A stretch of DNA of 64,000 nt from Lingula anatina. Lineage: Eukaryota; Animalia; Brachiopoda. Below are positions 2,591 to 56,000 of this stretch, piece by piece. Location of the stretch: NCBI GenBank assembly GCA_051362555.1, contig CM120647.1, positions 20,560,651-20,624,650 on the forward strand, written 5' to 3'. The notes below the pieces were generated by a model, which was given only the letters and a program-made list of their open reading frames with translations, did not search any database and was not told the DNA's origin. How positions within the stretch are numbered: the stretch's first letter is position 1; the number at the start of each line of letters is the position of its first letter. Made by a program: the position numbers and the translations under genes.

Positions 2591-5500
2591 TACTAAATAC
2601 GTTATTTATGTAGCCTTCTTATTATAAATTTATGTTTGTTGAAATAAGATGAGGAAATTGTAAGCTGATATGTCAGTAATCTTAACAAATGCTTATGTAA
2701 AATTTTTAATATGGTAGGAGTACATAGGAGTAGCCATGTACATGTATTTGCGTATGTACATGTATATGTTTAAATTAAATCTTACCATTCATGTCGATAC
2801 GTCTTGGCTCTCAGCAGTACGGTTTCTTTCATTCTTTTCATAATTTTGACAAACCATAACTAACCACAGTCATATTTTCTTCACATTTTAAATTATTCAT
2901 ATTTTACTATATATAAACATAGAGACGAGAGCTTAGAATATCAACATTTTGAGGCTCATATGATATGTATTAGGTCTCTTGTATTTCTTAAGCCCCCGTC
3001 ACACTTATTCGGAATCAGCAGGAATCAAGCAGAATGAGCCTGAATGAAGAATTTTCAAAATTCGCACCACATTCTGGAAAAAAGTTGAAATTGACCTTAA
3101 TTATTGTAAGAGTACCGGCGGAATACTCAGAATGCGCTTGAATTTGAATTCGCCTGGAATGATTAGTGCACTTTCGGCTGTATTACATGTAGCTCTCAAA
3201 TGCAGTTCGAATGTAGTTAGAAAACTAGGAATATCTATAATGCTGTCAGAAGGAAGTCAGAATATTTTGAAAATACTTTGAATGGCGTACTACTGTAGTT
3301 CGATTGCTGGCTAAATTAATATAGAAATGATTGTTGACTTCAGAAAGAATAGAAATGTGAAAGAACCCATTCATATCAGTGGCACTGCAGTAAAGCAAGT
3401 AGCCAATTTTAGACTGCTGGGGGTAGAATTCAATAGCTCACTTACATGGAAGGACCACATAGACAAACAGTTAAAAAAAGCGAGGCAAAGGGTATATTTT
3501 TTAAGAAAGTTGAAGGATTTTACTTCAAATGAAATGATTTTAGCAAACTTTTACAAATGCGTTATAGAAAGTATATTAACATTTGCAATCATAGTATGGT
3601 ATGGGCGGGCCACTGTAGAAGAACGCAAGCGTCTAGATATGGTCACATCAACGTGCGGCAAAATCATCGGTCTGGAACTCCCCTCTCTAGGTGCCATCTA
3701 TACTAATAGATCAGTAACAAAAACAGAGGAAATCATGTCTGACTATACCCCCCCCGCACATGGGCTTTTTAAATTTTTACCGAGCAACTGCAGGCTTTTA
3801 ACTTTTAAGGGATCTAAAAGGTTTTTAAAGAGTTTTTACCCATCTGCTGTGTCTTATTTTAACAACAAAAATGGAAATTTATAATTTATTTATTTATAAT
3901 TTGTAACCCGAATAGCAGTCCAATTTCCGTTTTATATGAATTTTATATTTATATATTAATGGCTGAATAAACTCTTATCTTATCTTATCTCTTATCTTAT
4001 CTTATATCAGCTCATTCGAGGCACATTCGAAACATTCCGGCTGGATTTTCTACCCCCGTCACACTAGAGGCGGAATGATCAAGAATGGCGTCGGAAATAC
4101 AATTCTTTGTGCATTCCTGGATATTCGAAGAGCATTCCGAAAATTCCGAGTGCATTCCAAATATTTTTACCCATTCTTGTGGCCGGCTCGAATGTTTTGC
4201 TCATGTCAAAAACTTTCGAAGTGCATTCCAAGTGGAAAATTATCTATTGGCATTTGAACAGAATTTTATCTGCACTATGACTGCATTCTAAATATTCTCA
4301 GGGCATTCCGACAGCATTCGAAACATTATGATCAGTTACCATTCCAGTGGCGTTATTTATACACTCTGGGTACCGTGTTACATTCTAAACATGTTAGAAA
4401 GTAATTTTGAGTATTTTAGGTATATCAGCTGCATTCTGTTTGAATTCTTTATATTTCAAACCATCATTGGCAGCCACACCGGGAGCATTTGAGTTCGCTT
4501 CGTATATCATTCGAGGCACCTTCTTACATACTTCGGCCAGCAATCAAAACTCACTCGTATGGCATTTGAATTTCATTCGGACTGCATTCTAACAACATTC
4601 GCAATATTCCCTCCCGATTATGGCACGAATTTTTCAATTAATTCATTCCAGCTGGTTCTGCTTGATTCCTGCTGGCTCCGAATAAGTTTGACGGGGGCCT
4701 TAAGTCACGTGCCAGTTCGAATATCCCTCGAATGTGATCAGAATGTTCCGAATGTTGCCAGAATGCCGTGAGAATATTTAAAATGCAGTCATAGTGTAGT
4801 TAGAATACTATTCAAATGCCATTCAATAATTTTCCACTTGGAATGCACTTTGAAAGTTTTTTAATATTCGGGCCGACCACAAGAATGGGAAAAAATTGAA
4901 ATGCACTTGGAATTTTTAGAATGCTCTTTGAATATCCAGGAATGCACAAGGAATTGTCTTTCCGACGGCATTCTTGCTCATTCTGCTTCTAGTGTGACGG
5001 GGGTATTAAACTACAAGGTGTAAGCTCGATTGAATTAAATGATACCTCACGGTGTAACCATAGATAAGAAATTGTCGACACTGTTGTAAAATTTAAAAAA
5101 GAAAGCAATGTTGACGTTAAAGGCGCAATTTTTGCATTATTTTTAGACTTAGAAGTTTCAATAACAAATGCGAAGGTGTCCAAATCTATTAATAGGAATA
5201 CACACTGCCTCCATTGCGTTTTTCTCATTTACAACAGTTCTCAATCAATGAAAGATTTATTATTTTTTTTAGCATACTATAATAATATTTTAATTTGGAA
5301 TATATTTAAGATTTTATTGCTATATATCCAAGGTAACAGCAAAGTTAACATCTTTTAACGTTTTTATTTCTAAATCAAAATGGATTGATGTAGCTTATGA
5401 ATTTCTCCGTCACTGAAATGCTCCTTTTGTGTTTATTTTTGTCATCATTCCATTGTGACTACATCTGCGAACTCCTCATTTGCCCAGTTATTGGGCAGTG

Positions 5501-8500
5501 AGGCAACGGAGCGTTACTCGGGCGTAGTTAAGATGATCATTTTTTGTCTTGGTGCAACGGGTGTAAGCAGGGAGAGTAAACCTGGCGCACGGACGCCAGG
5601 CGTTGCGGTTTACGACAGGCGTAGCCGAGTAAATTACGCCCTGTTGGTGCATCCAGGCCCTGGTGCGTTAAAGTCACTGAATTCTTTTATATTATGTGTT
5701 GATTATAACCCCTGTTTTGTCAAATACTCTAACAAGAAGAATCGCTTATGCCTTTCTTTCTCAGCAGAATCAACACCTAGCACATAAAATATATGACCAT
5801 GTATGAGAAACTGACATCCTGTCTTTACTGAAATGTTACATTAGAGCAACTTTGAGTATTACAGTTTATATCACTGGAGACCGACCCCTATTTGCAGCAT
5901 GCCTATGTCTTTTCCTGTAAATGGAAAGGATAAGTTAATCGCTTTATCATTATCGTGCTGAACGAGATAAATCATAGTGAAGGCAAAATAATGTATGGGT
6001 CATACCACAAAAAAGGGAACATTTGAGTTCCGCCATTGACGCATACCTTTTATGTAATATCTGATCAATTGATTTTTTCACTTTTATATTCTTGTTTATT
6101 TCTCTCCATATTGGAGGGATCAAACAGCAAAAATAAAAGTTAAAATAACGAAAGTATTGCATAAAATTTGTGCATCACTGGCGTGAATCAAATGTCCTCT
6201 TCCAGTATTTCATCTTTATCAAACATCAAGACATTCAAACCGCATTACTGTCATTTGAAACGTTCACCAGAGCTTCATTAACGCACAATTTGCGTATGCA
6301 GGGATTATCAATAAATCTATTAGCATGATTTGAGTATTTAGACAAACCACCAAAAGTCATTTAGAAGACGGAGGACTCTAAAATGGACACTCAATTTTTT
6401 ACAGCTGATAATAGTGTTTGCTATGGTCTAGTTGAAGGGGCATTAGTTAATGCAGTAATATAAAATGGCCACAAAGCGTCGTAAATCAAAGAATAGAGGG
6501 CTACAATGCCATGCAGGACAACACTTATCTTCATTTTATGGACTTCGTTTTGACGAAAGCCTTTATTGACGAGGCATTTTTGCGTCTTTTGTCTTTGTCA
6601 GACGTGGCGGTCTTCTTATTCGTTAACATTTTCTGATATAAAACGACACATAAACCTTTTTTATTTTTTAATCAATTTACTTTTTTTTTCGTTTGATAAC
6701 TTTATTTTATATTTTGTTACTTATTTTTATTGCGCGCACGTGAAAGTACTTGTGTGCTTTGCAATACGCCGCATCAGCTTAATTATTTATCTGAACAAAA
6801 ATCCCACGAGCATTATTTTCGTTTTAACCTCGTGGATCTGCTTTCTAATCCATCATCATTACACACTTAAAACTGTCCATATAATTTCCTTAAATTTCCA
6901 CAAAATAAGTTAACAGCCGTCACGCTCTGAATATCATCATCATCATTTCCCCGAAAATTATATTTTCTTTAACCAAATAAATTTTAATTTGCATAAACAG
7001 GTCATCCTAGGGTCGACAATATTGCTCTCCGGTTCTTTTGCTGTGTTGCCCTTTTTGCATGGATATATGTTCATGTGCATGTGTCCATGAGAGAATGAGA
7101 TTGAGATTGATTTTAAAATGTCACAAAACCAAATTTGTTTCTCCAGGCACGCGGCCGTACCACTCCACGACGTACACCGGTAACAGCGCCGTCAGTATTC
7201 ATAACCATGCTAACTACGACCGCACCATAGGGATGGGAGAGTTTGCCGCCGTCTTGAACGGGGTGGAGTTCCGGACCAGGCATAACGATTACAAGTTCGT
7301 CATGCCGTGCCGGAGAAGCAAAGATTTTCACTGCACAGAGGATATCCCTTTCCCTGATGTGCCACCAGAGGTACTGTTGGCATCGTTTTCTAATTTTGCA
7401 ACAGTGTCAGAATATTTCAAGTGTGAAATAGTCTGTTTAGTTGTAATACAGATTTTTATTAGTAGCAATCTTTAGTTATCTATCTATCCAATCTTCTATT
7501 AATTTATTTATGCATTTGTGTTCGTGTTTTGCTATGTTTGTATTTTTATTTTGTCGTCTCGTTTTTTAAAATATGTGAATTAATTTATTTGTTTGTTTGA
7601 TTGTTTGCTTTATTAATTAATTAATTTATCTATCTATTAATAATTATTATGATTCATTGCTTATTCGTTGTTTAATTACCAACCATGTATTCATTCAGGT
7701 CAGGAATAAAGCCACGGTGCAGGAACAGATAGCGGAGATGAAGGAGTGGTTCAAAGCTTGGAAAAATCAGGACAAATCTCACAGAGATTACACTAAATAC
7801 TTCAAAGCCAACCTTTGTTACTTAGAAGGAGCCTGGATGAAAAGCTCAGGTAATGGAAAATTATCTGCGGAAAATAATGAAGTACTCAGAAAGCTGTGTC
7901 ATATGTAGAATCTGTGGGCCAGAATGTTACCAAATCCCCTATTCTTATTATCTATTATTTTGTTGTTTGTTTGTTTATTTCAAAAGAAAATATGTACTTA
8001 ATGATATTAATTAAGCAAACAACATTAATTTGTGTCGCACTCAAATCACTTAGAACTGAAAGTCTTCGTATTTTTCACTCGCAGCACCTTTAGAAGAATC
8101 CTTCGACAGAGACCGCCACTTTTTGGACGCCACGGACTGGTTTGACCTGCACGAGAAGGCTCGCTTCAGCGCGTACTCTGGTCGCAAGGACAACCTTGAG
8201 AACTTTGCCTATCTTCCCGTCACCATTTCCGATCTCATCAACGGCACGATTCCCGAGCTTGCGCAGTGGAACTACCGGATATTATGTCATCCTCTGAAGA
8301 AGGACATACCGTTCAGCCACTTCCGGACCGTGGACGACCTTCATTCCAGAATGGCCTACAAATCCAGCATGGCGCTACAAACCGGGTCACGAAGAGCGAG
8401 GTAAGGCCAATTACGGAGTCTGTAACACTACATTTCAATAATTTTTATCTATCTATTTATAGATTTTCAGTATTGAATGAGGTTTAATAAATATTTTGTA

Positions 8501-16399: not shown

Positions 16400-17270
16400 G
16401 CCAAATACGAAAAAAACAAAAGCAAATATGCTTATAACAACTAGACAAAAACGTGCAAAAATACCAAAAACTGAACAGTAATTAAAAGTTATGTTCATTG
16501 GGGACATTTTAGATAATGTACAAACAGAAAAACTTTTAGGTGTATATATTAATGAAAATCTTAGCTGGAATGACTATGTGCAGAAACTTGAAAAAAGAAT
16601 TAACAGTAAACTTTCCCTTCTATCCAAACTAAAACGATACTTAACATTGGAAACAAGAAAACTGAAAACTGTTTTATAATGCACATATACTTTTTTTTTT
16701 TAAGATATATAAGTCTGTCCATCCACCACTTTTTTAGGTACTCCAATATGTCAACAGTGGTTGCCACCTCCACTTACCACAAATGTTATACTTTCTATGG
16801 TTATATGCCTATGTCAAGTTGATTCGGCAATAAACTATATATATATATATACTACCACATTTGGACTACTGCTCCATTATATGGAGCAGCTGTGCACAAC
16901 TAGAAAATATATACAAACTTCAGAAACGTGGAGCAAGAATCATTCTCGATATCCCAGAAAAAGAAGCCAAGAAACATCCAACAATTGAACTATTGAAGAA
17001 ACTAAAATGGCAAACAATCTATGAACGGATAGAATTTAAGAAAGCCACATTAATTTTTAAAGCTGTAAATGGACTTTCACCTAAGTACATCATGGATTTA
17101 CTGGGAATTACAACCATAGACACTACAGGCAGAATCACCCGATCAAATAATAAGGGAAATATCTATTTACCAGTTGTCATACATAAAGTCATACTAACTA
17201 AAGGCCCAATATGGACCTCGATCAAAATATGGAACTGCCTACACTCAGAAATCAAAAACTCCAAAGACAA
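16400..17270 (+). mobile_element. Degenerate CR1/L2-like LINE RT fragment interrupted by a 162-bp insertion
   Basis: EKLLGVYINENLSWNDYV, then FYNAHIL/PHLDYCSIIWS split by insertion 16692-16853 flanked by ATATACT direct repeats, then LQKRGARIIL...LKWQTIYERI. Confidence 0.85.
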
Positions 17271-17489
17271 CGTGACAACGTCGACCATGAGCAAAGTCAA
17301 TTCCGGGCAGAATGGACAAGTATAAGTTAGCATAATTTATAATTGTTCAAGGAATCATTGATTAGACAAATAGATGAAGTTACTGGTACATTATCTAAAA
17401 AAGTTGTTCAAATCACCGCATCAAAAAAAGCTTAAGAGTTCCAGCTGCTTCTCGGTGCATCACCTGAAAAAGAGGAAATAATTATTTGC

Positions 17490-41008: not shown

Positions 41009-44000
41009 GCAAAGCACAAATTCCTTAAAACTACTTATTGTTAACTACATGACCCTGTCAAAGGTGGCAGCTCTGTCTGCTAAGTGGTTCTCTTACACCA
41101 TATCCAGGCTATTAAGCAGTCAATATTTCAAAACCTTATACCACTTATGAAATTCCACAGTATAATTATGCTCAATTTAAAAAGGTTCTCTGTTTCTTAA
41201 AATCATACTTTATGTAATTAGCAATGACCATATATAAATATCTTATACAGAGCTCACCAAGTAGACTCAGCCCAAATCCAGTGAACCCCTGTTTTAGTCC
41301 AGAGGACACCCCTACTGGATGATGTCGTCTGCTGTGTTCCTGTCTCTCAGAATGGTCAGTGTCCAGCGAAAGACGGTCCATGTTCCTGGATACACTGGAT
41401 GCAAAACTGGTGATAGATGAGAGAGTGCCTGAGAGAAAAGGAAAACCAAGGATAACAATGAACTGAAAAAAATTTGTGTTTTTTGATTTAAACTTTTTTT
41501 CATAAGGCACTGTCTTGAAAGAAAATAAACCACATAGGTTCACATTATTGATAAACTGAAGCTCAATTCTGTTTGTCTGCAACAATGGTAAAATACTTTG
41601 ATATACTGATGATTCGTACATAAAATACAATAGAAAAAGTATATTTAATCTTACAGTGACAACAGCTTCAATTGCATAAAATCAAAATGGCAAAAAAAAA
41701 AAGAAATACCTCTCAGTAAAGACTTATTTCACAAGTAGTAAAAAATAGCTTATGTTGTAAAATCACAACAAAACAAATACTGAAACACATGTACACAAAC
41801 ACAGAAATCCAATGCTCACAAGCACACATGGGCACAAGCACACCTTCACACTCACCCCCCCACACACACGCACACAATCAAAACAGTCTATCTCAATGAC
41901 AAATATTTCATCCACACTCACCTGCCGTGACATTAGCCAACAGTGACCCCATGCCCTGTGTCACCCCCCAACAAACACTCACCTGCTGTGACATTAGCCA
42001 ACAGTGACCCCATGCCCTGTGTCACCTCTCCAACAAACACTCACCTGCTGTGACATTAGCCAACAGTGACCCCATGCCCTGTGTCACCTCTCCAACAAAC
42101 ACTCACCTGCTGTGACATTAGCCAACAGTGACCCCATGCCCTGTGTCACCCCTCCAACAAATGCCCCCGGTCCTCTTGAGAGTCCAGCATACGGCATTCT
42201 GAAGAGGTCGGCTACTCCTGTCCCGATACTTCTGACCAGTCCAGTAGGGTTGCCTAGCAACTCTAGTGAACCGACCACCCACCCTGGAAGAAAATGTTTC
42301 ATGTAAAATAACCTCAATCTTTTTATTTTCTTCTATGCAGCTGATATACAGTGTGGTGCACTAGTATATACTCACTTAATTAATTTTAATTTTTTACTAA
42401 TCAATTTTAAAAAAGACAAAGAATGAAAATATATATATAGATATTTTCTTAACTTCATAAATTCAAATGCCAGCAAAATATGTTAAGAAAACAAAAGTAA
42501 ATGAATCATACTTATTACCTTTTAATGACTCAGTTCAATTCCATACCTAGATATTATGTTAACTGAATAAATCTTAAAATAAACAAGTTAGGAAGAAAAA
42601 AATAAAACAATTCAAACCAAACCCAGCATAAGAATTCAATCATCTAGAAGCATAAAACCAGAACCCAAAGTACCTATTTCAAAAATACCTGCTCTAAAGA
42701 GGGCGCCAGTGGCATAATGCATGGCTAGGGTCCTGATCAAAGTGCGGCTGGTTGTATGAAGGTTGTCAACATCAAAGTGTCCAAAATTCAAAGGGGTGTT
42801 GTCTGATGAAAGGAACAGCTTTAGAGAGGCATGGACACTAAGCTGCAAGCTCATTGGTTGGATTGACAGAAGCCGTAATCTAATTGGTTGACTGATGCAC
42901 ATAGCTTCGGCCAACACAGACCTGGGAATCAGATGTTTTGTTGGAAGATTTTTCTTCGAAAGTGGTACTGGAATGAAAGTGTCAATTTTCTTGAGCATGT
43001 CATAAACAAAGGTGTCCTCGATATACAGAGACATTGGTTTCATGGCAACATTGACTTTTTCCACCATCAAGCTGCCATCTTGTTGATACAGTGTCAAATC
43101 CACCATGACTAAGCAGTTTGGTTTCATATATGTCAACTTTTCAACTGTCAGTAGTTGTTCAAACTCAACACCAAGATGGCAGCCTTTGAAAGATGCCTGC
43201 TTCTGCAACACAACAGGAAAATGGTAGTTTCCAGTGTTGTACATCTGGTTATCAACCTGCAGGTTCCCAACGCAGACTGCAAATGTCCTCTCACCACTAG
43301 GTGGCACTTGTGTCACCCCTATAGGATAGTACGCGATGAAGATGTCGTCTGCTGTGATTCGCAACACTTCAGTGCTCTTTCTGGGATTTGTGACATCATC
43401 GGAAAGAATGCAGCAGACCAGTTTACACATAACAGCTGTTTCAATATGCAATCCCGGAGAATCTCTGTCTTCATTAGTAGCAACCTCTCCAGCATTGGTC
43501 TTGCCTTCTTCTGTGACATCCACTGGAACCAGATGAAAGGATTCAGAACTGGCACGTTTCTCCTCTTTTCCTGTCTCCATAATGACTGTGGTTGTCTGCT
43601 GTGTTATCCTGCTACGTATTTCTTTAGCTGAGACTTCTGCCCTGCTTACTGTGTTCACAAACACCTGGACAGTATGACCTTTGTGTTCAACATGAACTTT
43701 AACATCCTTAGACGCTGGTATATGCACAAAACTTTCCCGTGTTGACTCCAAATCAATACCCTGGCTCCACAACATTGTATTTTGTGCCCCTGATTCCACC
43801 GCCAGATGGAGCTTCAGGTGCTTCCCTTTGTTCTGGCCAATGGCTGGAAAGCTTGCAGAGATTTCTGGGAAGGTATAGTGGACTCTTCCATGAGGAGGGG
43901 CCAAAGGTAGTTCCTGGAATTGTTCCTGCTCTTCATGGACAGTGACCCCTACACCCAAGAAGGTAAGTAAATAAGTACTTAATATATGATCATTAATATG

Positions 44001-47000
44001 TGCATTACTGTAAATAATTACTGAATTATGGAAAAAACAGAAAAAGTCCCACATTAATCTCGAAAAAAGAGCAAACTTTTCATTGGCCTTGTAATAAAAA
44101 TTTTGAATGCCTTAAAACTATTGCAGCAGAATGGACATTTATTTTTCCAAGAAGCAATAAGTGTGATGATTTATGCAAAAAAGCATCTTAAAAAATTAAA
44201 ACCAGTACCTTTCATTTCGGGAGTCAGGCAACCCTGCCCAAAGTACAATACAGTATCTGTGTTATTATGCAACAATATAGATGGCGCCGGGTCATCCTGT
44301 ATCACAATATATGTCACTCCTTTCTTCACATGATGTGTAACCACACATGCACAACTCTGCCAAGCACCTTCAGAATAGAATGGGAACGTGCAGGTTGACC
44401 TTGACCCAGATTCTGGTAACCTTGACCCAGATTCTCCAACCTTCACCCTCAGGGGGACACTCCACATGAATCTGTGTGTGTCTGTCTTAAAGGGACTTGA
44501 CTCCTGTTCTACACTGCTGATTTCTTCACAATGAAGTTTGAAAAGAAGATATTTGGCATGATCTTTGGCTTGAGTGTCAGGGTCCAGTCTGGTCCAAGGA
44601 GAGAGTGGACGTAGTCCTGGTTGACCGCTGCTTGACCTTGACACGGACACAGCTTTGGAATGGTCCAGAGATAATGAAGTGTACTGGAATGATCAAATAT
44701 TCATTATGCAAACTGGGGAGGCACTTAGATTTATACAACAAAATAGTATTCAAAAAGAGCAGATACATTATTTAAACACGACACTGAACACAACCTGAGA
44801 AATACAAGAAAATCAATATGCATGTCTATAATTAGACTTATAATATTCAAAATAAGTAGGTCTATTATGTAACATGTTATTTTGAATAGAATATTATTAT
44901 AAAATGTGTTACTGTTAGAATACCACCTGAGAACTGAGAAAATCAATATGTATATCTGGCTATATATAATGTCTCAAACTTTCCAATTCCATTCCACTGA
45001 ATCTCCGATGGACAACGTGATTACCAGACAAACTTCATCTTAAAACTAAATGATATTCTGGAAGATTTGAGACTGTGATTGCAAAGAAATGCCAGTTTGT
45101 CAGACTAGAAATGTGCAGACTATTTTTAATATTCATAATAATTTAAACTTTAATTTTTACAGAATGTAGCATCCCTGCTGCTACACTTACTTTGTTCTGT
45201 CCAAAAGGCACCTCAGCACATAAGACCATAAGGTCAAGCTGTGACTGGTTGACCAGTTGGTACGTCTCCTGTATGGTCAGTACTCTCATGTGGTGGTGGA
45301 CATCTGATGTCAGGGTCAAGTAGTGGACCTGGAGACATAAGTACTCGTATGTATTAAGGTATGTCAAGAATGTAATAGTATGGTAATACATTATGGGGTA
45401 TGTACTGGTATGTGGTTATATGATTTAATGAACTTTTTGCCTATCTCTTGCTCCTTTCTCTCTCTTCTTCCTGACTTCATCCACCTTTGTCCCCTTATTG
45501 CACAAGCTCTCTCTCTTTCTCTCTCTCTGATCATGCATGCACATTAAAAACAAGTCCTCTCCATGCAAATCACGTACTTGGTTATATGATTTAATGAATT
45601 TTCTGCCTCTCTCTCTCTTTCTCCTCTCTCTCTCTTTCAACATCATCTTCCTTTCTCCTGTTTTGTAATAACAAGCTCTCTCTCTCTCTCTCTCTCTGTC
45701 TGTGTGATCAAACACATTAAAAACAAGTCCTCTTCATGCAAATCAAACAGTAGCTTTTTATGACCAGTAAATGAAAAATATGATTAGATCACATTTTTAT
45801 AAGCCACACCCTCTTCACTGTTCAGTATAACCAAATGATAACCTAAACACAGCTTATGCAGTGACTGGCATATCAGGCACACCTCTTTAATGAACATATC
45901 CTCTGTAACACAATGCTACCCTACCTGATCATCCACAATGATGGACACATTGGTCACACCCCCTTTGTAGACCACGCCCTCCACTCTTGGAAGATAACCT
46001 CGATCTTCTTCTGCTTCATCTGATAGCACCAGGATGTTTGAGCTATAGATGGCGCTGTTCTGTGTAACTCCAAGACGGAATCCACCCTGAAGTTCCAGGC
46101 AGCATTATTTAATTTTTACAATTTTCAGTATATTCATAATTCAAAATTTACATATTGCCATGCACAATTCCATAGCACTGTCCAATTAAAATTTTCTTTC
46201 TACATATAGTAAAGAATAAAATTCTAAATATAATAATACAAAGGAATTAAAATTTAAATCTAAAAGGTAAAAATAAACAAACACATAAAAAGAGATATGT
46301 CAAATCATACCAGATTTGAAAAACTTGGTTACTAAGGATGTAAACGACTTGGTACATGAACTCACTTCTAGTGGTGGTGGGGCCATCATCTCCCCACTCC
46401 TTATCACCCACACCTTCTCACTAGAACTGTCCACTATGGCCACGCTCATCCCAGCCCTGTTGACCACTAGTGACCAGGGGGTAATGTCCAACAACAGGGT
46501 ATTGCATCCCGGCCATCTCTGACTAAGGTGGACCTGGAGGTCTATATTAGGGTGTGGCTGGCTCAGGTCACCCCCCAGGGTGGGGGTAAGGGTAGGGGTG
46601 GTTGCCTGAGGGGTAGGGGTGGGATGGGAGTACGGCTCTGACTGTCTGGAGTCTGGAATGTTGGGACTGAAAAATGTGGTAAATTCAAAGTGATAAATTT
46701 TCATAAGAAAAATAACTCTTAAAAATATAAATGAATAATAAAAAACCCATACAACTGTAACTGTTATATGTAAATACTTTAGCAGACAACATTATTTTTC
46801 AGTCTAGTCTTTTCTCTCTCCATTATGTGGTTTTAGGTGATTTTTTCAAAAAATACCTGAAATCTTTGTCAGTGTATGGCCAGTGTGTATTACTCTCCGT
46901 ATCCCAGCTATAGCACTCTTTCTCTATGTCCAATGTGTCCACTGACTGATGAGTGACCTGGTCCGTCATCCCTGCAGACAGCGACAATGGAGGACTGGAC

Positions 47001-50000
47001 GGCTTCATGCAATCTCTGAGATTAAATGGTATAGCATAAGAAATGTTTAAATAATGCAGTTTGTCAATTTGAAGCATAGGTAAAATATTAAGTATTTGAA
47101 GATGGATACAAAATATGCTTGTCCAAAGCAAGAACATGTATGTGCTCAAAATGTGCAAGCTAATAAATAAATAAATTAATTAATAAAGCACTGAATGTTT
47201 AAAGAGACTCTAATTCTGTACCCTTTAACATATCTGAATTAAAAACTCATGTCCACAAACCCTTGTTGAAACGTCAACATGTGCGTCACGTCCCCACCCA
47301 CACACTGCAGCTGCTGCTCTACACCATGTCCTGGTAGTAGCAACTGTTGCATGCTCTTCATGCGCGGCGTATCCACATTCACAATCAGCTGTGATGGCAG
47401 GTGTGCTCTTAACACAAACAAAGGTGTGAAAAGTACCTGAGGGGGGAGAAAAAATGTCCAGTTAAGTGATACTTTGTCTAAACTGGCAACAAGAAAGGAG
47501 AGGGAATAGCATCAGCATTTTACAGATAAAGAGGAGAAAATTTACTTTTGTCAACAGTTTTTGATATGGTATACTGATATACCTGTGTCACATAAATTTA
47601 ACATACATGTGAAAGGTGTTATGTAGAATTCTCATGTATGTGGACAAATAGACAAACAGAAAACACTTACCACAGTCTGTGTGACATCACCATAAGATTT
47701 TACACTGCACCAGACATGTAGAAAACACTTACCACAGTCTGTGTGACATCTCCATAAGATTTTACACTGCACCAGACATGTAGAAAACACTTACCACAGT
47801 CTGTGTGACATCACCATAAGATTTTACACTGCACCAGACATGTAGAAAACACTTACCACAGTCTGTGTGACATCTCCATAAGATTTTACACTGCACCAGA
47901 CATGTAGAAAACACTTACCACAGTCTGTGTGACATCTCCATAAGATTTTACACTGCACCAGACATGTAGAAAACACTTACCACAGTCTGTGTGACATCTC
48001 CATAAGATTTTACACTGCACCAGACATGTAGAAAACACTTACCACAGTCTGTGTGACATCACCATAAGATTTTACACTGCACCAGACATGTAGAAAACAC
48101 TTACCACAGTCTGTGTGACATCACCATAAGATTTTACACTGCACCAGACATGTAGAAAACACTTACCACAGTCTGTGTGACATCACCATAAGATTTTACA
48201 CTGCACCAGACATGTAGAAAACACTTACCACAGTCTGTGTGACATCACCATAAGATTTTACCAGGACACTGCACCAGACATGTAGAGAACCATTTTTATC
48301 TGATGTTGACAGCTACAACAAGAAACAATTTTGAAGTGCATAAAAATGTTGAAAACTATTTTTTTTCTTGACTACTAAGTACACATAAAAATGGTAAAAA
48401 ATTAATACTGATATCTTTTATATTCCATCATGTTCACGAAACGTAACTAAATGATAATGAATATTAAATTCATTTGTTCATTTCAAAATGGTGTGGAAGG
48501 CAAAAACAAGGAATGGATGGAATCAGAAAAAAAATGGAAACAGTAGATGATGGAGGAAAGGAAATTCCAAGAAAACAAAATACAAGGAAGGATATACCAA
48601 GAGCCTACTTTTGAACCTAACATTAAAATACTTTAATTCATCCATTATTATTCAAACATGAAACCAAGACTACCTTCACCATCTTGTTTTCCTTCATCCC
48701 TTCTCCCGTCACTTCAATATCAGTAGACCAAGCCATCTTAGGTCCCATCAGTCTGACCTTGACCCCTGTGATCTCTGACCTCTCCATAACGAGGCTGGGG
48801 AGGGTCTGCTTAGCTCCAAGGATGTGTGGTGTCTCCTTGGTCAGTTGTTGCTGAAGGACCTTCACCTCAAGATGCTGGGTCAGTCTGTTGGCTATGACCA
48901 ACTGGCCACTGATTATAACCTGTTTTATTTTAAAGAGATAACAACTGTTAGTAAGATATCCATATTTCACAATAAATACATTGTAAAAAGTTCATAGAAA
49001 TATAATTAATTCCATTTTACCACCAAAAACAGTGGTTAATGCAATTATTCTGGAATTTGTGCTTGCCATCACATTATGTGACCTCCATAGATGGCTACTA
49101 GTACACTCTGAAATAATCTCTTAAGAGAATATAACAGAAAACCAGACTTTTTAGAAAAGGGTCTAACTTTGAATGTGGGAATGGATTCACTAACCATCAG
49201 TAAGTATGGGGAAATTGTCCTTTACCCCAGGAAATTCATTTTTTAGCCAAAATGAACAATTGTTATCCATTTAATATACATATATATTAACTAAAATGAA
49301 AAGTTATATAACACTATATAAAATATGGATAATTTATATAACTTTATATAAAATATGGATAATTAACTGACAGCAACCTGTGTCTGAAACATTTATTAGC
49401 TTCCCATTAATCATAACCTGTTCAATCAATTAAAACAGAATGTGTGTGACACTTAACTAACAGCATGTCAGTGGTGTGAATGATTGTGGTGAATAAAAAT
49501 CACAATAGAGGAAGGGCTTAATATGATACAGAATGTATAAAGAGAGTAATTTGAACTTGTTTTGATGTTTTTGAACTGATATCCAATATCAGCACCCATA
49601 TAATTTGCTTCAGAACAAAATTTTCATTAAGCTTCATTTTTCTGCTGGAGACACTTCATGCCTTTATTAAATACCATTTCTTAATTATTTGCTGTTAAAA
49701 CAGTGTAAAGCTTAATCTGTCACATACAGTTACAAGTACAATCATAATAAATTGCTGTGCTAAAGAAATAGAATTTGCTTCACTTTTATTAGACATTTTT
49801 AAAACAGAACTCAAAACATATCTATTAAAAAAGTTATGAATTTTTATAAGTGATTTGATGAAGTAACATTAATTCTACAATTCATTAAAATCAATTTACT
49901 TGTAATCAATTCCAATTTTGCTTTTCTTTGATCTCCCTATACATTAAGATTTTTGTTCACAATGCATTGTAAGATCTACTAAACAAATAGGATAGAAAAT

Positions 50001-53000
50001 TAATCAAATAAATAAATTAAACAAGTAAACAAATAAATGAATAAATATAAGCCAGAAATTTAACGTAAAAGCCTTTAATATTTCCTCTACAGTTTAACTA
50101 CATTCAACCATTGTGTCAGAAGGGATCTACTATACTTCAGTGATAAGGCTGCAATGTCATAGATCTATTTATAGCCTGGGCAATTCCACTGTCTACACAC
50201 ATCCTTTATATTGTGCTTGTTACAAAGTGCAGCTATACACAGACGAAATATATATATATGAGCTTGTTTGAGTTTGCTTGAGGAAGCGAAATGTTGTAAA
50301 GCATAAAAAGATTGAGGGAATTTCTTACATGAAGTCAAGAGAGCACCTGAAGACATTTACAAGTAAGTAAATGCAATCAATCAATCAAAGTCTCTGTTAT
50401 AGGGCTATTTGACTTCTGTGAAAAGTCAGACAAATTTGAAATAATAGCCACTCTTTTACAGTGATCCCCAAAAATAGGTCCATGAAGAAAGAAAAACAAT
50501 GTTACCCACATATGATGGGGGAAAAATCTAAAGCCTGAATATAATGTAAAACTAATAAAGCCCACCATTTGTAACATTGCAGCTTGATATATACTATATG
50601 CACTTAATGTTGCACATGTGGACAAAGCGGCCAAATAAAAATAAAAGGTGAAGGCATTCATTGAAACCCCAAATTCTTCAGAACAGAATAAATACAAGTA
50701 TCTGTTAGCTTTTTTTGTATATCTTAAATTCAACTTGTCTTTTTGGATCTGACCTCCAATCATAAATTTTTTCCACATTTATGCCTAAGCTAGGTCATGG
50801 GAGTAGATAGTGTACTTCCTAGTTAGATAAACTGTCATCATGAGACCATTACATTTTTATGGGTTGAACACATACACTATTTGTAAAACGCACTTTCACT
50901 TTGTCGTGTTTATTTTGTGTCTGTTCAGATATCTGATTTTATTAATACAGTCAGCTAATAAATAATATAGATTCTCTATGAAAGGGGGGGGGCAGGTTAC
51001 GAAAAACACTTAACACATCATTTAAGCATTATAATATAATTGTACCAAACACCAGCATTCCATTTTCAAATTTTATGTCACATTAAACATGTGTATCTGG
51101 CTAATTTAGAGCAATTGAATCAAAACTCACTTTGTTTTCAGATCTTGTGACTGATCAAAATTCTAAACCCTGTGAACATCACCGATGTCAGAGCTTGAAC
51201 AAAAGCTGATTTGATTGGCTGTGAACATTAAATGCAGTTGTCGGACACTTTTTCTGTGTAGTTTTCATACATAACTGATAATCAGTATGAGCCAGTACTA
51301 CCCTAAACTGTGTGGGTTGGTTATAGACCATGGGGCACAGGCTCTGAGGAATTATATACAAAACAACATTGTTGATGTGTGGATACAGCAACAGCAGGGT
51401 CAGCAGCAGCAGCAACAACAACAACCATCTTCAAATCAGCCATCTCAAGTGCTACTTCAGCAGCAACAGAATTTACAGCAATTTCTCCAGGCAAAGAAAT
51501 ACATCTTAGATCAGCTGTACAAAAACAAAAAGTTGCTCAAGAAACATCAGTACGACCTTCTGTTTCCACGGCAGCAAAACCAACAACAGCAGCAGCAGCA
51601 ACAACAAAAAAAACAACAGCAACAACAATCCAATCCCAACATTGCAGAGTTTGACATCACTCTCCTCTTTTTTCTAATCCGTCAACTCCACCCCAACCCT
51701 CCCTTCCAGCCTAACAGCAAGGAATGGGATGTCCCTGCTATGGCTAAAGGAAAACCTAGTCTTACCGCCGACCTGGAGGCAGCCATACACATCAAAATGT
51801 ACAGAAACAAATTTGCCCATCCAAAATCAACTGACATGACACAAAAAGACTTTGAGGCATCATGGGCAGAGATATGCCAGCATATCATACAGCTGGGGGT
51901 GCCACAGTGTGACCTTGATGCCTTGAAGGTCAAATCCCTTGACCCAGCTTTGGAGAGATCATTCGTGGAAAGAATCATAACCCAAGAGAAAGAGGATGCA
52001 GAAATAAAAGCAATCCTGTCACAGATTTTGGAGCTTCTCAAACCAAATCCCTTCGCTTTACCACCACCATTACAAACCACAGAGCGAACTATCAACCAGG
52101 CAGCAGAACTGACAGGTAGGTTGAACAATGTGTGAAAACTATTTGTTGTCATAGCAGCCCATGATAAGCACCACATGAGTTACACCAAACAAGCTGATGA
52201 CACTGTAGATCATTGAGACCTTATAAACAAGTTGTTTTTAAAAAACCATCATATTAAAGTAACTTATTGTAAACAACAGCTAAAATAAAAAAATGAACTT
52301 TTTTTCACAATATTCTGTCTATCAGGTAAGTTTCCTTCATTAGGGAATAAAGAAACATAAGATTGTAAAAAAGTAATTATGATTTACTTCTGCTGTTGTT
52401 TAGAATTAACTGATAACAGCGACTGATATTGACTAGATTGTAATGGTTACTTTAACTCAAGTATTATATCATTGTATCTTCCTAAAGTGAGAGGGTAAAA
52501 ATTTCATTACATTCTAGCCTCTTATCTCAAATCCCAATTTTGAAATTATAATGTTTTTCAAGTTTCTTGTACACTCAGGTTAACAGCATAGTGTCATTTT
52601 TATTTCAGAGGCTCAACTGCATCAACTCCAACTAAAACTGGCTTCCCTGTATCAGAAACGCTACAGTCGTATTCCAGTGATCCCTTTTGATCCAAAAGAA
52701 ACCATGGATATTGAACAAATTTATATTGAGTTAAGACTCCTGAAAGATGCCAACTCTACTTTGGGACATTTTTTCAAACCAAATATTGTTCCACTGAATT
52801 CTTACTTGGATTTGTTTGAAATAGAAAATGGAAAATCTCCTCGGCGAATTGTTGTGCGCGGTGAACCAGGAAGTGGCAAGACAACCCTCTCTATGAGAAT
52901 TGTGACCCACTGGGCAAACAGAATTCTGTATCTTTATAAAAATGAACAATCTCAATGTCAGTCCAAGGAAAATGAAACCTTTAAAGACAAACTACTCAAT

Positions 53001-56000
53001 ATCTTCAAACCTTCAAAAGATACACCACCAAGTTTGCAGATGACATCACTTGACCAGTTCCTGCTCATTCTTCCAATTTACTTAAGAAATGTCCGGGAAA
53101 ATATGACTTTCCCTGAGATTTTAGATGAGAACATATTCCAAGAGGCTGACTTGGCACCCACGGGAATCACATTGCAGGACATATGGCAATTTATTAACTC
53201 TAACCCTCAGAGTGTGCTGTTGGTGTTAGATGGTTACGATGAACTGAAAAGTGGCTCAAATGCTGACCTTGAAGGTATCATACAGGACAGTAAAATGAGA
53301 GACATGACCATCATCACTACCACTCGCAACTGGAAGGCTGAGTATCTTGCTGATAAAACAAAGACTGATGTTCATGCTGAAATTGCTCCAATGAGCAGAA
53401 AGCATGTGCAAGAACTAACATGTAAATACTTTTCTATTCTAGCAACTGCAATTGAATTCAAACATGGGTGCTGGAGAAAACAGACATTTACAAAGGATAT
53501 AAATGAGTATGCATCATTAATAGCTGCATGCAAATTTCTCAACTTCCTTGAAGCAAACTCCATGGCTGAGAAGATCACACCACTAACTTTGTTATACACT
53601 TGCCTTCTGTGGCAAAATGGTGAAGAAATCCATGTACCAACAACCAAAGCTAAACTCATTTCTGCAGTGCGTGAATATAGTTTGTTGCGTTACTGTGAAG
53701 CCCAACCTGATCCAAGCAAAGCAAAGGAAGAGGTGAAAAAAGAGATCCTCCCAAAACTTCAAAAGATGTTTTTTGACAGTGTTCTTGAAGACAAGTTTGT
53801 TTTCAGCACTGAAGAGATTGATGATGAAAGACTCTTCAGTGCAGGTCTGATAACTCAAGAAGTACGAGTTAAACCAATTTTACCTACTTTATCATCTGGT
53901 GAAGAAGAGGGGCAGTGGGGGAGATACAAATGTAAATATTATGAACCTGTTTATCTAAGAACAGCAGTTGAAAGTCATGCAGCAGACTACTTTGTGCAAA
54001 GAGCTCTACAAAATAGCCAAGACCCTCATGTTCAGAAATTCTTAAGGTACATCAAATCTGATGAAGGAAAACTGCGCTTGGGGAAAGTAACTGAATTTAT
54101 TTTGGAACAGGCACCAAGCCTTTCTGAGCTATTTGAATGAGAGTATGAAATTAATTTTAATTGTAACAGTGGCAGAAATCCCTTTCCACTTTTCTACAGT
54201 GCAACAAACATGATAAATGTAGGGAAAACTAAATTAAGTTCTTTAAAACATCTATTACTGGATGGGCAATTTAGTTCAATTGACAACACTGCAGCATCTC
54301 TGCAGTGACTTCAGCCAGTCAACAGAGAGGAATTATTCTGACTTATTATGTAACGAGCACCTGGAGTCACTGTTTTGTACCATTTTTGATAAAATACCAT
54401 GATTCATTTAGACTACCATGTCTCCCTGGCATTTCAGAAGGGAAACCCCATATCAAGTGCTTAAATCTGAGGGGTTTTATCATTTTAAGGTATGAATTAA
54501 GAAATATATGGAGCTCTAAGGGCATTCAGACATAAAAATGACCTTGGCCCATTAAAAATGTGTATATATTATATCTTTAAGTGTTTTACCTTAACAACCC
54601 CTAAATCATCACTGAAAATACTGAAGGTAATTTGATAAACCAAATGATGACCAAATAGCAAGTAATAAACAACCAACCTGTCTCTGAAGCCCAGATATGA
54701 CCTTGACCTTGATGAGGAAGGTGACCTTGTGACCTTTGTGGTCAATGGTCCTGATGACGGTGCCAGGTTTCTCAATTTCAAAAGGATCACACCACTTCAT
54801 GTTTTTACCCTCCAGACACACCTGGAGAACCTGGAATTTAATGAGGAAAAATAATTGAAGTTAAATCTCAGATCACAATTTTGACTTTGGCTGAGGTCTC
54901 CTCTTGGCTAGGTTCCCACCCAAAGCTGGGATAATTGACCTTTGCCTTTGGTGTCAGTCAATTATCCCTGCTTAGGGTTGGACCTAGCCATGAGGTGACC
55001 AAAACACTTTGTGATATGATTATTAAGTTTTATGATCAGAACTCTGAGAGCATAACATGGCTAATAAAAATCTCTGCTGGAATCTTACAGCCTTATCTTT
55101 TTTATTTCAATTACAAAATCCTTTTTTAAGAAACCACTACCTGTTGTTTCTTGTGGCTTCTCCAACTGTATGCATGCATTTCTCTGCTCTGTAGAGAAAT
55201 ATTTTCATCAGAACCAACTTGGCCAAACCTAAAATTGCCAAGAAAAAAAAAGGCATTCATCAAGTCATCCATATTCAAAGTGTTCGCTCAGTATGGAGAC
55301 GAAAGTGGCAATTTATTGCCACAACTTCTTACAAATCTTGGCCACCTTTTCTGAACTTTCACCTTATGTCCACTGTCAGAAATCCGTGTCAAAACTTCAA
55401 GGAAATATGTGTAGATATGAGGACATTTTGCATTTTTCTCAAAGATGTAATAATTGAAAAAAAAAAAAAAAAAAAGAAACAACATGAAGTAGAAATATTG
55501 TTGGTTCACGAACAAAGAGTTGTTTTTTTGTTGTAGTTGTAATTATACAAAATGGCTGGAAATACCTGATAGTGCTTAAGGTATCGTTACATATCATGTA
55601 ATAATTCACTATCACTTTCTCGGCTTGGGCAGTCTGCTGCAACTGTGCCCAGGTCTGAACCATGACTCCCAGGGTGTGAACTGTGCTCTGTCCTATGTGT
55701 AAATACACAGGGTCAATCTTCACATCACATTCTAAAGTGGACTGAAATAGTTAGAAAAGACACATATTTAGTTGTGACTCCCAGGGTGTGAACTGTGCTC
55801 TGTCCTATGTGTAAATACACAGGGTCTATTTTCACATCACATTCTAAAGTGGACTGAAATAGTTAGAAAAGACACATATTTAGTTGTGACTCCCAGGGTG
55901 TGAACTGTACTCTGTCCTATGTGTAAATAGATAGGGTCTATCTTCACATCACATTCTAAGGTGGACTGAAATAGTTAGAAAAGACACATATTTAGCCGTG

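Follow-up and report, generated by a model that had tools for sequence, protein, structure and literature searches.

An expressed HEPN-NACHT gene of Lingula anatina with a short C-terminus and a replaced winged-helix histidine

Previously, the fusion of a DZIP3-like HEPN domain with a NACHT domain has been described in animals, and a defence role based on ribonuclease (RNase) activity, with a parallel in bacterial STAND proteins, has been proposed for it (PMC3710099). The pearl oyster has more than 50 HEPN_DZIP3-NACHT proteins, with the Rx4-6H motif kept in 194 of 202 domains (PMC9646362), and anthozoans have 17 to 83 HEPN-NACHT proteins each (PMC8260672). Forms without leucine-rich repeats (LRRs) are also on record: among the HEPN-NACHT rows examined in Supplementary Table 5 of the anthozoan report, an LRR call is missing from 19 of 29 for Actinia, isoforms being counted, and from all 15 for Acropora, and in file 17 of PMC10236652, three of 28 HEPN-NACHT rows are marked as C-terminally truncated (among 30 sampled of 323). 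Hence, neither the HEPN-NACHT architecture nor its LRR-less form is new, both being in print for corals and oysters. The present study concerns a HEPN-NACHT gene on the plus strand of a 64,000-nucleotide stretch of the brachiopod Lingula anatina (GCA_051362555.1, contig CM120647.1, positions 20,560,651 to 20,624,650; hereafter the window). What is new here is an RNA-backed truncation together with a natural, activating-type substitution at the histidine of the winged-helix domain (WHD).

The NOD-like receptors (NLRs) with a HEPN domain found in corals, anemones, bivalves, hemichordates, and amphioxus have the same PF18738 domain with R-N-x3-H, the NACHT domain, the lineage-specific expansion, and the predicted RNase role. 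The Lingula gene differs from these published HEPN-NLRs in its RNA-backed short end, the replaced WHD histidine, a variable insert in helical domain 1 (HD1), and its antisense position in VPS13B. Its product belongs to the invertebrate HEPN-NACHT family and is not a canonical NLR. With NLRC4 (PDB 4kxf), it has in common the fold of the nucleotide-binding domain (NBD), HD1, and WHD, and its natural Leu at the H443 equivalent is the residue of the H443L allele. In contrast to NLRC4, it carries HEPN in place of CARD, has no LRR, and stops at the position matching NLRC4 residue 507.

NLRC4 is activated by H443L or H443P, as are two bacterial NACHT proteins by the corresponding change (bioRxiv 10.1101/2022.07.19.500537). 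According to the same preprint, bNACHT16 and bNACHT25 have the His natively and its mutation is toxic, bacterial NACHT anti-phage proteins likewise join an enzyme effector (HEPN among them) to NACHT, and the short bNACHT01 clade with a SNaCT tail is repeat-less and functional, with fast-varying C-terminal regions. Compared with these bacterial proteins, the Lingula gene is an animal gene, contains an intron, and is closest in sequence to animal NLRs. NLRP10 is a functional NLR without LRRs. Both NLRP6 and NLRP10 signal via a pyrin domain and caspase-1, not via an RNase. In human NLRP6, the WHD His is naturally absent, as in the Lingula protein, with helical domain 2 (HD2) and the LRR retained (PMC13672055).

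Gene structure and transcripts

The two coding exons (Table 1) join into a 786-residue frame without internal stops, in line with the uninterrupted two-exon frame of the preliminary description. The frame opens with ATG at 51287, passes a GT donor at 52116 and an AG acceptor ending at 52608, and closes with TGA at 54138-54140. The gene had been called hidden, which does not hold: its product is already annotated as RefSeq XP_013400937.1 (Lingula anatina LOC106166828), identical at 785 of 786 residues and labelled 'uncharacterized'. The described location antisense within a VPS13B intron was borne out, the gene lying wholly inside a host intron on the opposite strand.

Seven of the nine listed RNA runs were aligned, X2 and X6 being left out. 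The libraries appear unstranded, and 25 to 30% of each run was read for X7, X8, and X9 (study P3) and about 6% for X1, X3, X4, and X5. Both exons are covered in X7, X8, and X9 (three of the seven runs) at a summed depth of about 1 to 10, and the intron is spliced GT..AG as predicted in 14 reads (5 in X7, 1 in X8, and 8 in X9), with three additional variant-junction reads in X8. The spliced joint links exon 1 and exon 2, and with them HEPN and NACHT, in one transcript. Cover extends beyond the stop codon, in X8 to 54660, and no read joint leaving exon 2 is listed in X7 to X9, at a depth at which a minor isoform would be missed; a transcript without an LRR exon, as supposed earlier, agrees with these reads. 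No X7 reads fall in the host intron at 50301-51200, upstream of the gene, which argues against pre-mRNA background, and the gene depth is about equal to that of the VPS13B exons. The few X1 and X3 reads at the gene share the direction of the VPS13B reads. The limitation of detection to study P3 may be due to the tissue or condition sampled, to the depth of sampling, or to presence/absence among individuals.

The P3 reads are mostly 90 to 99% alike to the gene. Since the VPS13B exons differ too, these reads likely come from a diverged population. Among the 40 of 163 variant rows listed for the gene, 20 codons are synonymous and 14 non-synonymous, no stop is gained, and the ratio of non-synonymous to synonymous polymorphism (pN/pS) is about 0.18 (p = 1.5e-6 against neutrality). 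For the VPS13B exons, the corresponding codons number 17 synonymous and 9 non-synonymous (among 28 rows listed). The read variants suggest purifying selection on the gene.

Domains, winged-helix position, and C-terminal end

The HMMER check proposed in the preliminary description called both expected domains: HEPN_DZIP3 (PF18738) on exon 1 with an E value of 4e-25 (88.7 bits against a cut-off of 27; profile positions 2-142 of 144) and NACHT on exon 2 with an E value of 1.3e-20. The RNKFAH motif reported earlier is present at residues 173-178. An R-x4-H arises by chance in 44% of 2000 shuffles of the same protein; therefore, the HEPN call rests on the Pfam match and on R173, N174, and H178: when 31 HEPN-bearing proteins are aligned, only four columns are invariant, and these residues occupy three of them. 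A separate motif count of 33 in 33 was set aside as circular, its regions having been chosen by the motif itself. The modelled domain is an all-helical bundle. HEPN RNases such as Csm6, RnlA, and AbiF have the R-x4-H motif in common with the Lingula protein, and the modelled domain may resemble them weakly in structure; at the sequence level they do not match the Lingula HEPN, and RNase activity is here predicted only. Two polyglutamine-rich inserts lie in the domain (51386-51470 and 51572-51628), the second being shorter in the other Lingula copy introduced below. Around the motif, 7 of the 13 residues 171-183 (window 51797-51835) differ between the two copies, with R, N, and H kept; judging from sequence, this divergence may correspond to a different RNA preference.

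For comparison, relatives were taken from a HMMER search (the best 150 of 662 hits at E 0.001). Of the 153 proteins, 114 had a recognisable Walker B motif and alignable length, 112 of them being relatives besides the two Lingula copies. The complete Walker A and B motifs described earlier are in place, together with sensor-1 R516, and P601, C608, and W611 of HD1 are also kept. The full-length model has a mean predicted local distance difference test (pLDDT) score of 82, and its residues 275-786 align to NLRC4 93-507 (Z 33.1; root-mean-square deviation (rmsd) 3.0; 405 residues aligned). A sequence search of the PDB with the single protein gave weak NLR matches only.

The losses cluster in the WHD. 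The family motif F-x-H-K-S-x-Q-E, which aligns to the H443 motif of NLRC4, has His in 106 of 112 relatives; the Lingula protein has Leu726 there, and the second Lingula copy, P0002, has Glu. An independent profile gives the same register for the His column, with a high posterior for P0002 and a moderate one for P0001. Furthermore, the replacements G661Q, A664F, F724V, H726L, and Q730V affect residues conserved in 97 to 106 of 112 relatives. In all, 9 of the 25 columns conserved among relatives are lost here, against a median of 1. Changes at 537-538 were discounted as losses, as NLRC4 departs from the consensus there too. We found nothing relevant on natural loss of this His in LRR-less invertebrate NACHT proteins in the literature searched, which lay mostly outside subscription journals.

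P0002 (LOC106168299; 732 aa, 92% identical) lies on a 26-kb contig and is an allele or recent paralog. Both frames are open, and R-N-x3-H and all NBD motifs are kept in both. Because P0002 has Glu at the His position and ends five residues later, the truncation and the His loss are common to the two copies. In a HEPN tree of 34 sequences, they fall in a Lingula clade of eight (support 100/99), with three longer HEPN-NACHT proteins (P0005, P0006, and P0020), two HEPN-only proteins, and one HEPN-amidase fusion. Given these longer paralogs and the WHD His kept in P0006 and P0020, the truncated form is likely derived within a lineage-specific expansion. Among 30 scanned HEPN-bearing proteins, 29 also have NACHT, and six of those 29 have a Pfam LRR match. 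Word-based homolog searches returned, besides the two Lingula copies, only two distant NACHT proteins.

The tail after the His column measures 60 residues, against a median of 471; it is 100 residues or shorter in 7 of 112 relatives and in 3 of 23 HEPN-bearing ones. HD2 of NLRC4 spans about residues 465 to 580. With these boundaries, and because model residues 275-786 align to NLRC4 93-507, the modelled protein ends about 40 residues into HD2, which is thus incomplete. The preliminary description had placed the stop shortly after the helical region, with no repeat sensor. The latter part stands, as no Pfam repeat domain was matched in the 786-residue protein; the early end within HD2, the replaced WHD His, and the HD1 insert had been missed. 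Downstream LRR exons or decayed HD2/LRR remnants were not found in the window. A profile made from 63 LRRs of relatives gave nothing below E 0.16 against 2113 six-frame window segments; in controls, P0005 scored 1e-8 and P0006 barely (E 0.065), so divergent repeats can escape this profile. When the C-terminal tails of 102 relatives were compared by tblastn with the sequence downstream of the stop, a single chance-level match appeared (E 0.047). A link of short tails with His loss among relatives is not claimed, about three of the six non-His rows looking misaligned. In addition, judging from neighbouring accessions, P0076 may represent a shortened isoform of an LRR-called gene.

The start of HD1 carries an insert of about 25 residues. 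The HD1 spacing is 51 residues against a median of 26 among 110 relatives, and is as long in six of them. Of the 56 differences from P0002, 13 fall within residues 561-581, a clustering equalled by none of 5000 shuffles; compared at the sequence level, the insert is hypervariable between the two Lingula copies. In mouse NAIPs, ligand specificity is set by helical domains and not by the LRR (PMC8283967); by this analogy, the HD1 insert is a candidate sensing surface.

Two other Lingula models touch the same family. P0023 (LOC106156274, 428 aa) has HEPN_DZIP3 with an intact R-N-x3-H, then a transmembrane-like hydrophobic stretch, and then Amidase_2. It is possibly a bacterial-wall sensor (Amidase_2 being of peptidoglycan-recognition type) joined to a predicted RNase, or else a fused gene model. 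P0009 (LOC106150941, 930 aa) is HEPN-CARD-NACHT and ends 32 residues after a retained WHD His; it is a further Lingula model without LRRs, placed on a different branch of the HEPN tree.

Possible modes of action

That an NLR-type switch activates a HEPN RNase is a plausible idea and has already been proposed (PMC3710099, PMC9646362, PMC8662601); section 7 of the last calls for molecular tests of HEPN-NLRs. Starting from the gene structure, splicing, domains, end point, motif states, and membership in the Lingula expansion as observed, the reading that we favour, at about even odds, is that this expressed, lineage-specific HEPN-NLR without the canonical brakes works as an immune RNase switch under other control. 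In such a switch, the NBD would bind ATP and oligomerise as in NLRC4, and oligomerisation would pair HEPN domains into a composite R-x4-H site cutting viral or cellular RNA. Since the LRR, HD2, and histidine brakes are missing, control would have to act in trans, through a partner or restricted expression, or lie in the remodelled HD1/WHD, in which case the variable HD1 insert could be a sensing or bait surface. A more specific version, that selection has favoured a 'pre-unlatched' NLR nuclease with the His-to-Leu change and no LRR, held off only by a partner or restricted expression and with a fast-evolving HD1 insert as sensor or bait, is offered only tentatively and seems doubtful at present.

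Several observations count against an RNase switch. Human NLRP6 has Asp at the WHD His position yet is autoinhibited (PMC13672055); thus, His loss need not mean spontaneous activity, and since other WHD residues are also changed here, the effect of Leu in NLRC4 is not transferable. The full-length model is nearer to closed NLRC4 (rmsd 3.0) than to active NLRC4 (11 to 12), and such models do not report the state. The best solved match of the HEPN model, Csm6 4rgp (Z 5.7, rmsd 3.8, 110 residues aligned), is weak and below the tool's reliable level, as are the several other HEPN proteins among the top 50 structural matches. No sense-strand reads were found in the fractions read of X1, X3, X4, and X5. 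The P3 reads may represent an allele or near-paralog, and the variant rows listed, 36 of them in coding sequence, give no direct view of codons 173, 178, and 726 or of the stop codon in the reads. Besides, no bench test of any animal HEPN-NLR was found in the literature searched.

Part of the same evidence could fit a decoy or negative regulator, in which the truncated NACHT would join full-length Lingula HEPN-NLRs or bind their triggers and thereby damp them. Remodelling at five highly conserved WHD positions could prevent productive oligomerisation, the same Lingula clade includes longer paralogs, and expression close to VPS13B exon depth in X7 is hard to reconcile with an unrestrained RNase. 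A pure decoy, in contrast, would have no need of the R-N-x3-H and NBD motifs that both copies keep, and we consider this explanation unlikely. The sensor-less helper or executor of the preliminary description would stay inactive and be nucleated by a sensor NLR distinct from it, in the way that NAIP nucleates NLRC4. The missing repeat sensor, the intact effector motif and NBD, and paralogs with LRR-like tails that could be sensors agree with it. However, the classical helper NLRC4 retains its LRR and the ADP-latch His H443 to stay off, the Lingula protein has neither, and the window holds no second NACHT gene; a classical helper is thus quite unlikely.

A decaying duplicate of a birth-and-death family, truncated and drifting toward a pseudogene, would account for the excess of lost conserved columns, the end inside HD2, the polyglutamine inserts, and the lack of sense reads in four of seven runs; moreover, the authors of a coral study suspect that many truncated NACHT models are annotation artefacts (PMC10236652). 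Yet both copies are open, the pN/pS ratio is low, the losses cluster in the WHD with the catalytic motifs kept, no HD2/LRR remnant follows the stop, and spliced transcripts occur in three runs, which makes decay improbable. An equally low probability is given to a HEPN domain that serves as an RNA-binding sensor or scaffold, does not cut, and signals via partners. A role as RNA sensors has been suggested for HEPN-NLRs (PMC8662601, section 7), and Foldseek found no solved structure matching the HEPN model at E 0.001 or better. Against this stand the invariance of R, N, and H in all 31 aligned proteins, the wide retention of Rx4-6H in the pearl oyster, and the lack of a death-fold domain for signalling in the protein.

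In corals and bivalves, the genes of HEPN-NACHT proteins rank with the most expanded immune-like ones, and the RNase activity of these proteins has been predicted since 2013; the usual obstacle to testing it is that the trigger is unknown. A compact form without the LRR, most of HD2, and the ADP-latch His may be active, or easily activated, without a ligand, which would make the RNase question testable, and an immune RNase switch of this kind would show animal NLR regulation without the canonical brakes. If the pre-unlatched form were true, its primed state would make it readily usable as a reagent with which to test directly, for the first time, RNA cutting by animal HEPN-NLRs. If the protein is merely a truncated family member, it is ordinary.

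Host gene and other features of the window

Table 1. Positions of the HEPN-NACHT gene, its parts, and the host intron in the window
Feature	Position	Strand	Basis
VPS13B host intron, 5758 nt, enclosing the gene on the opposite strand	48920..54677	-	reads and frame
Coding exon 1: HEPN domain and linker, aa 1-276 and first base of E277	51287..52115	+	frame; read cover in X7-X9
DZIP3/hRUL138-like HEPN domain, about aa 1-250, with two polyglutamine-rich inserts	51287..52036	+	PF18738, E 4e-25; model pLDDT 89
R173-N174-x3-H178, predicted RNase motif	51803..51820	+	invariant in 31/31 aligned HEPN-bearing proteins
Phase-1 GT..AG intron, 493 nt	52116..52608	+	14 joint reads in X7, X8, X9
Coding exon 2: NBD, HD1, WHD, HD2 stub; aa 277-786 and TGA	52609..54140	+	frame; model alignment to NLRC4
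Walker A GEPGSGKT, aa 361-368	52860..52883	+	motif read
Walker B (hhhhDGxDE), aa 480-488	53217..53243	+	motif read
Sensor-1 R516	53325..53327	+	kept
Insert of about 25 residues at HD1 start, aa ~552-581, beta-hairpin and helix start in model	53433..53522	+	spacing
Leu726 at the WHD ADP-latch histidine (NLRC4 H443 equivalent)	53955..53957	+	His in 106/112 relatives
3' untranslated region	54141..54660 (limit of cover)	+	shallow but unbroken cover in X8; X7 and X9 covered in part

The host gene was recognised from a long minus-strand open reading frame (ORF) at 42639-44030, which matches VPS13B with an E value of 2e-55, and from five CT..AC read joints on the minus strand between 54830 and 58548. 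Twelve X7 reads pass from the VPS13B exon ending near 54677 to sequence matching the exon near 48.9 kb, and these two exons join in an open frame across the intron that encloses the HEPN-NACHT gene. At 54881-55007, within a VPS13B intron, reads of X1, X3, and X4 are piled up with loose ends and an opposite-strand joint; these reads probably stem from other loci, at which a small palindromic repeat element is transcribed. The gene is flanked by an imperfect inverted repeat of 25 nt (50989-51013 / 54577-54601), which was considered as a transposon end and rejected, as 6 of 60 random region pairs were equally good.

Elsewhere on the plus strand, segments at 1608-2021, 7011-7472, and 8060-8401 are probable exons of a separate gene, with no Pfam match. 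Three ORF fragments (75-837, 3315-3881, and 16834-17322), also on the plus strand, resemble what we take to be the reverse transcriptase of a non-LTR retrotransposon and its C-terminal region.

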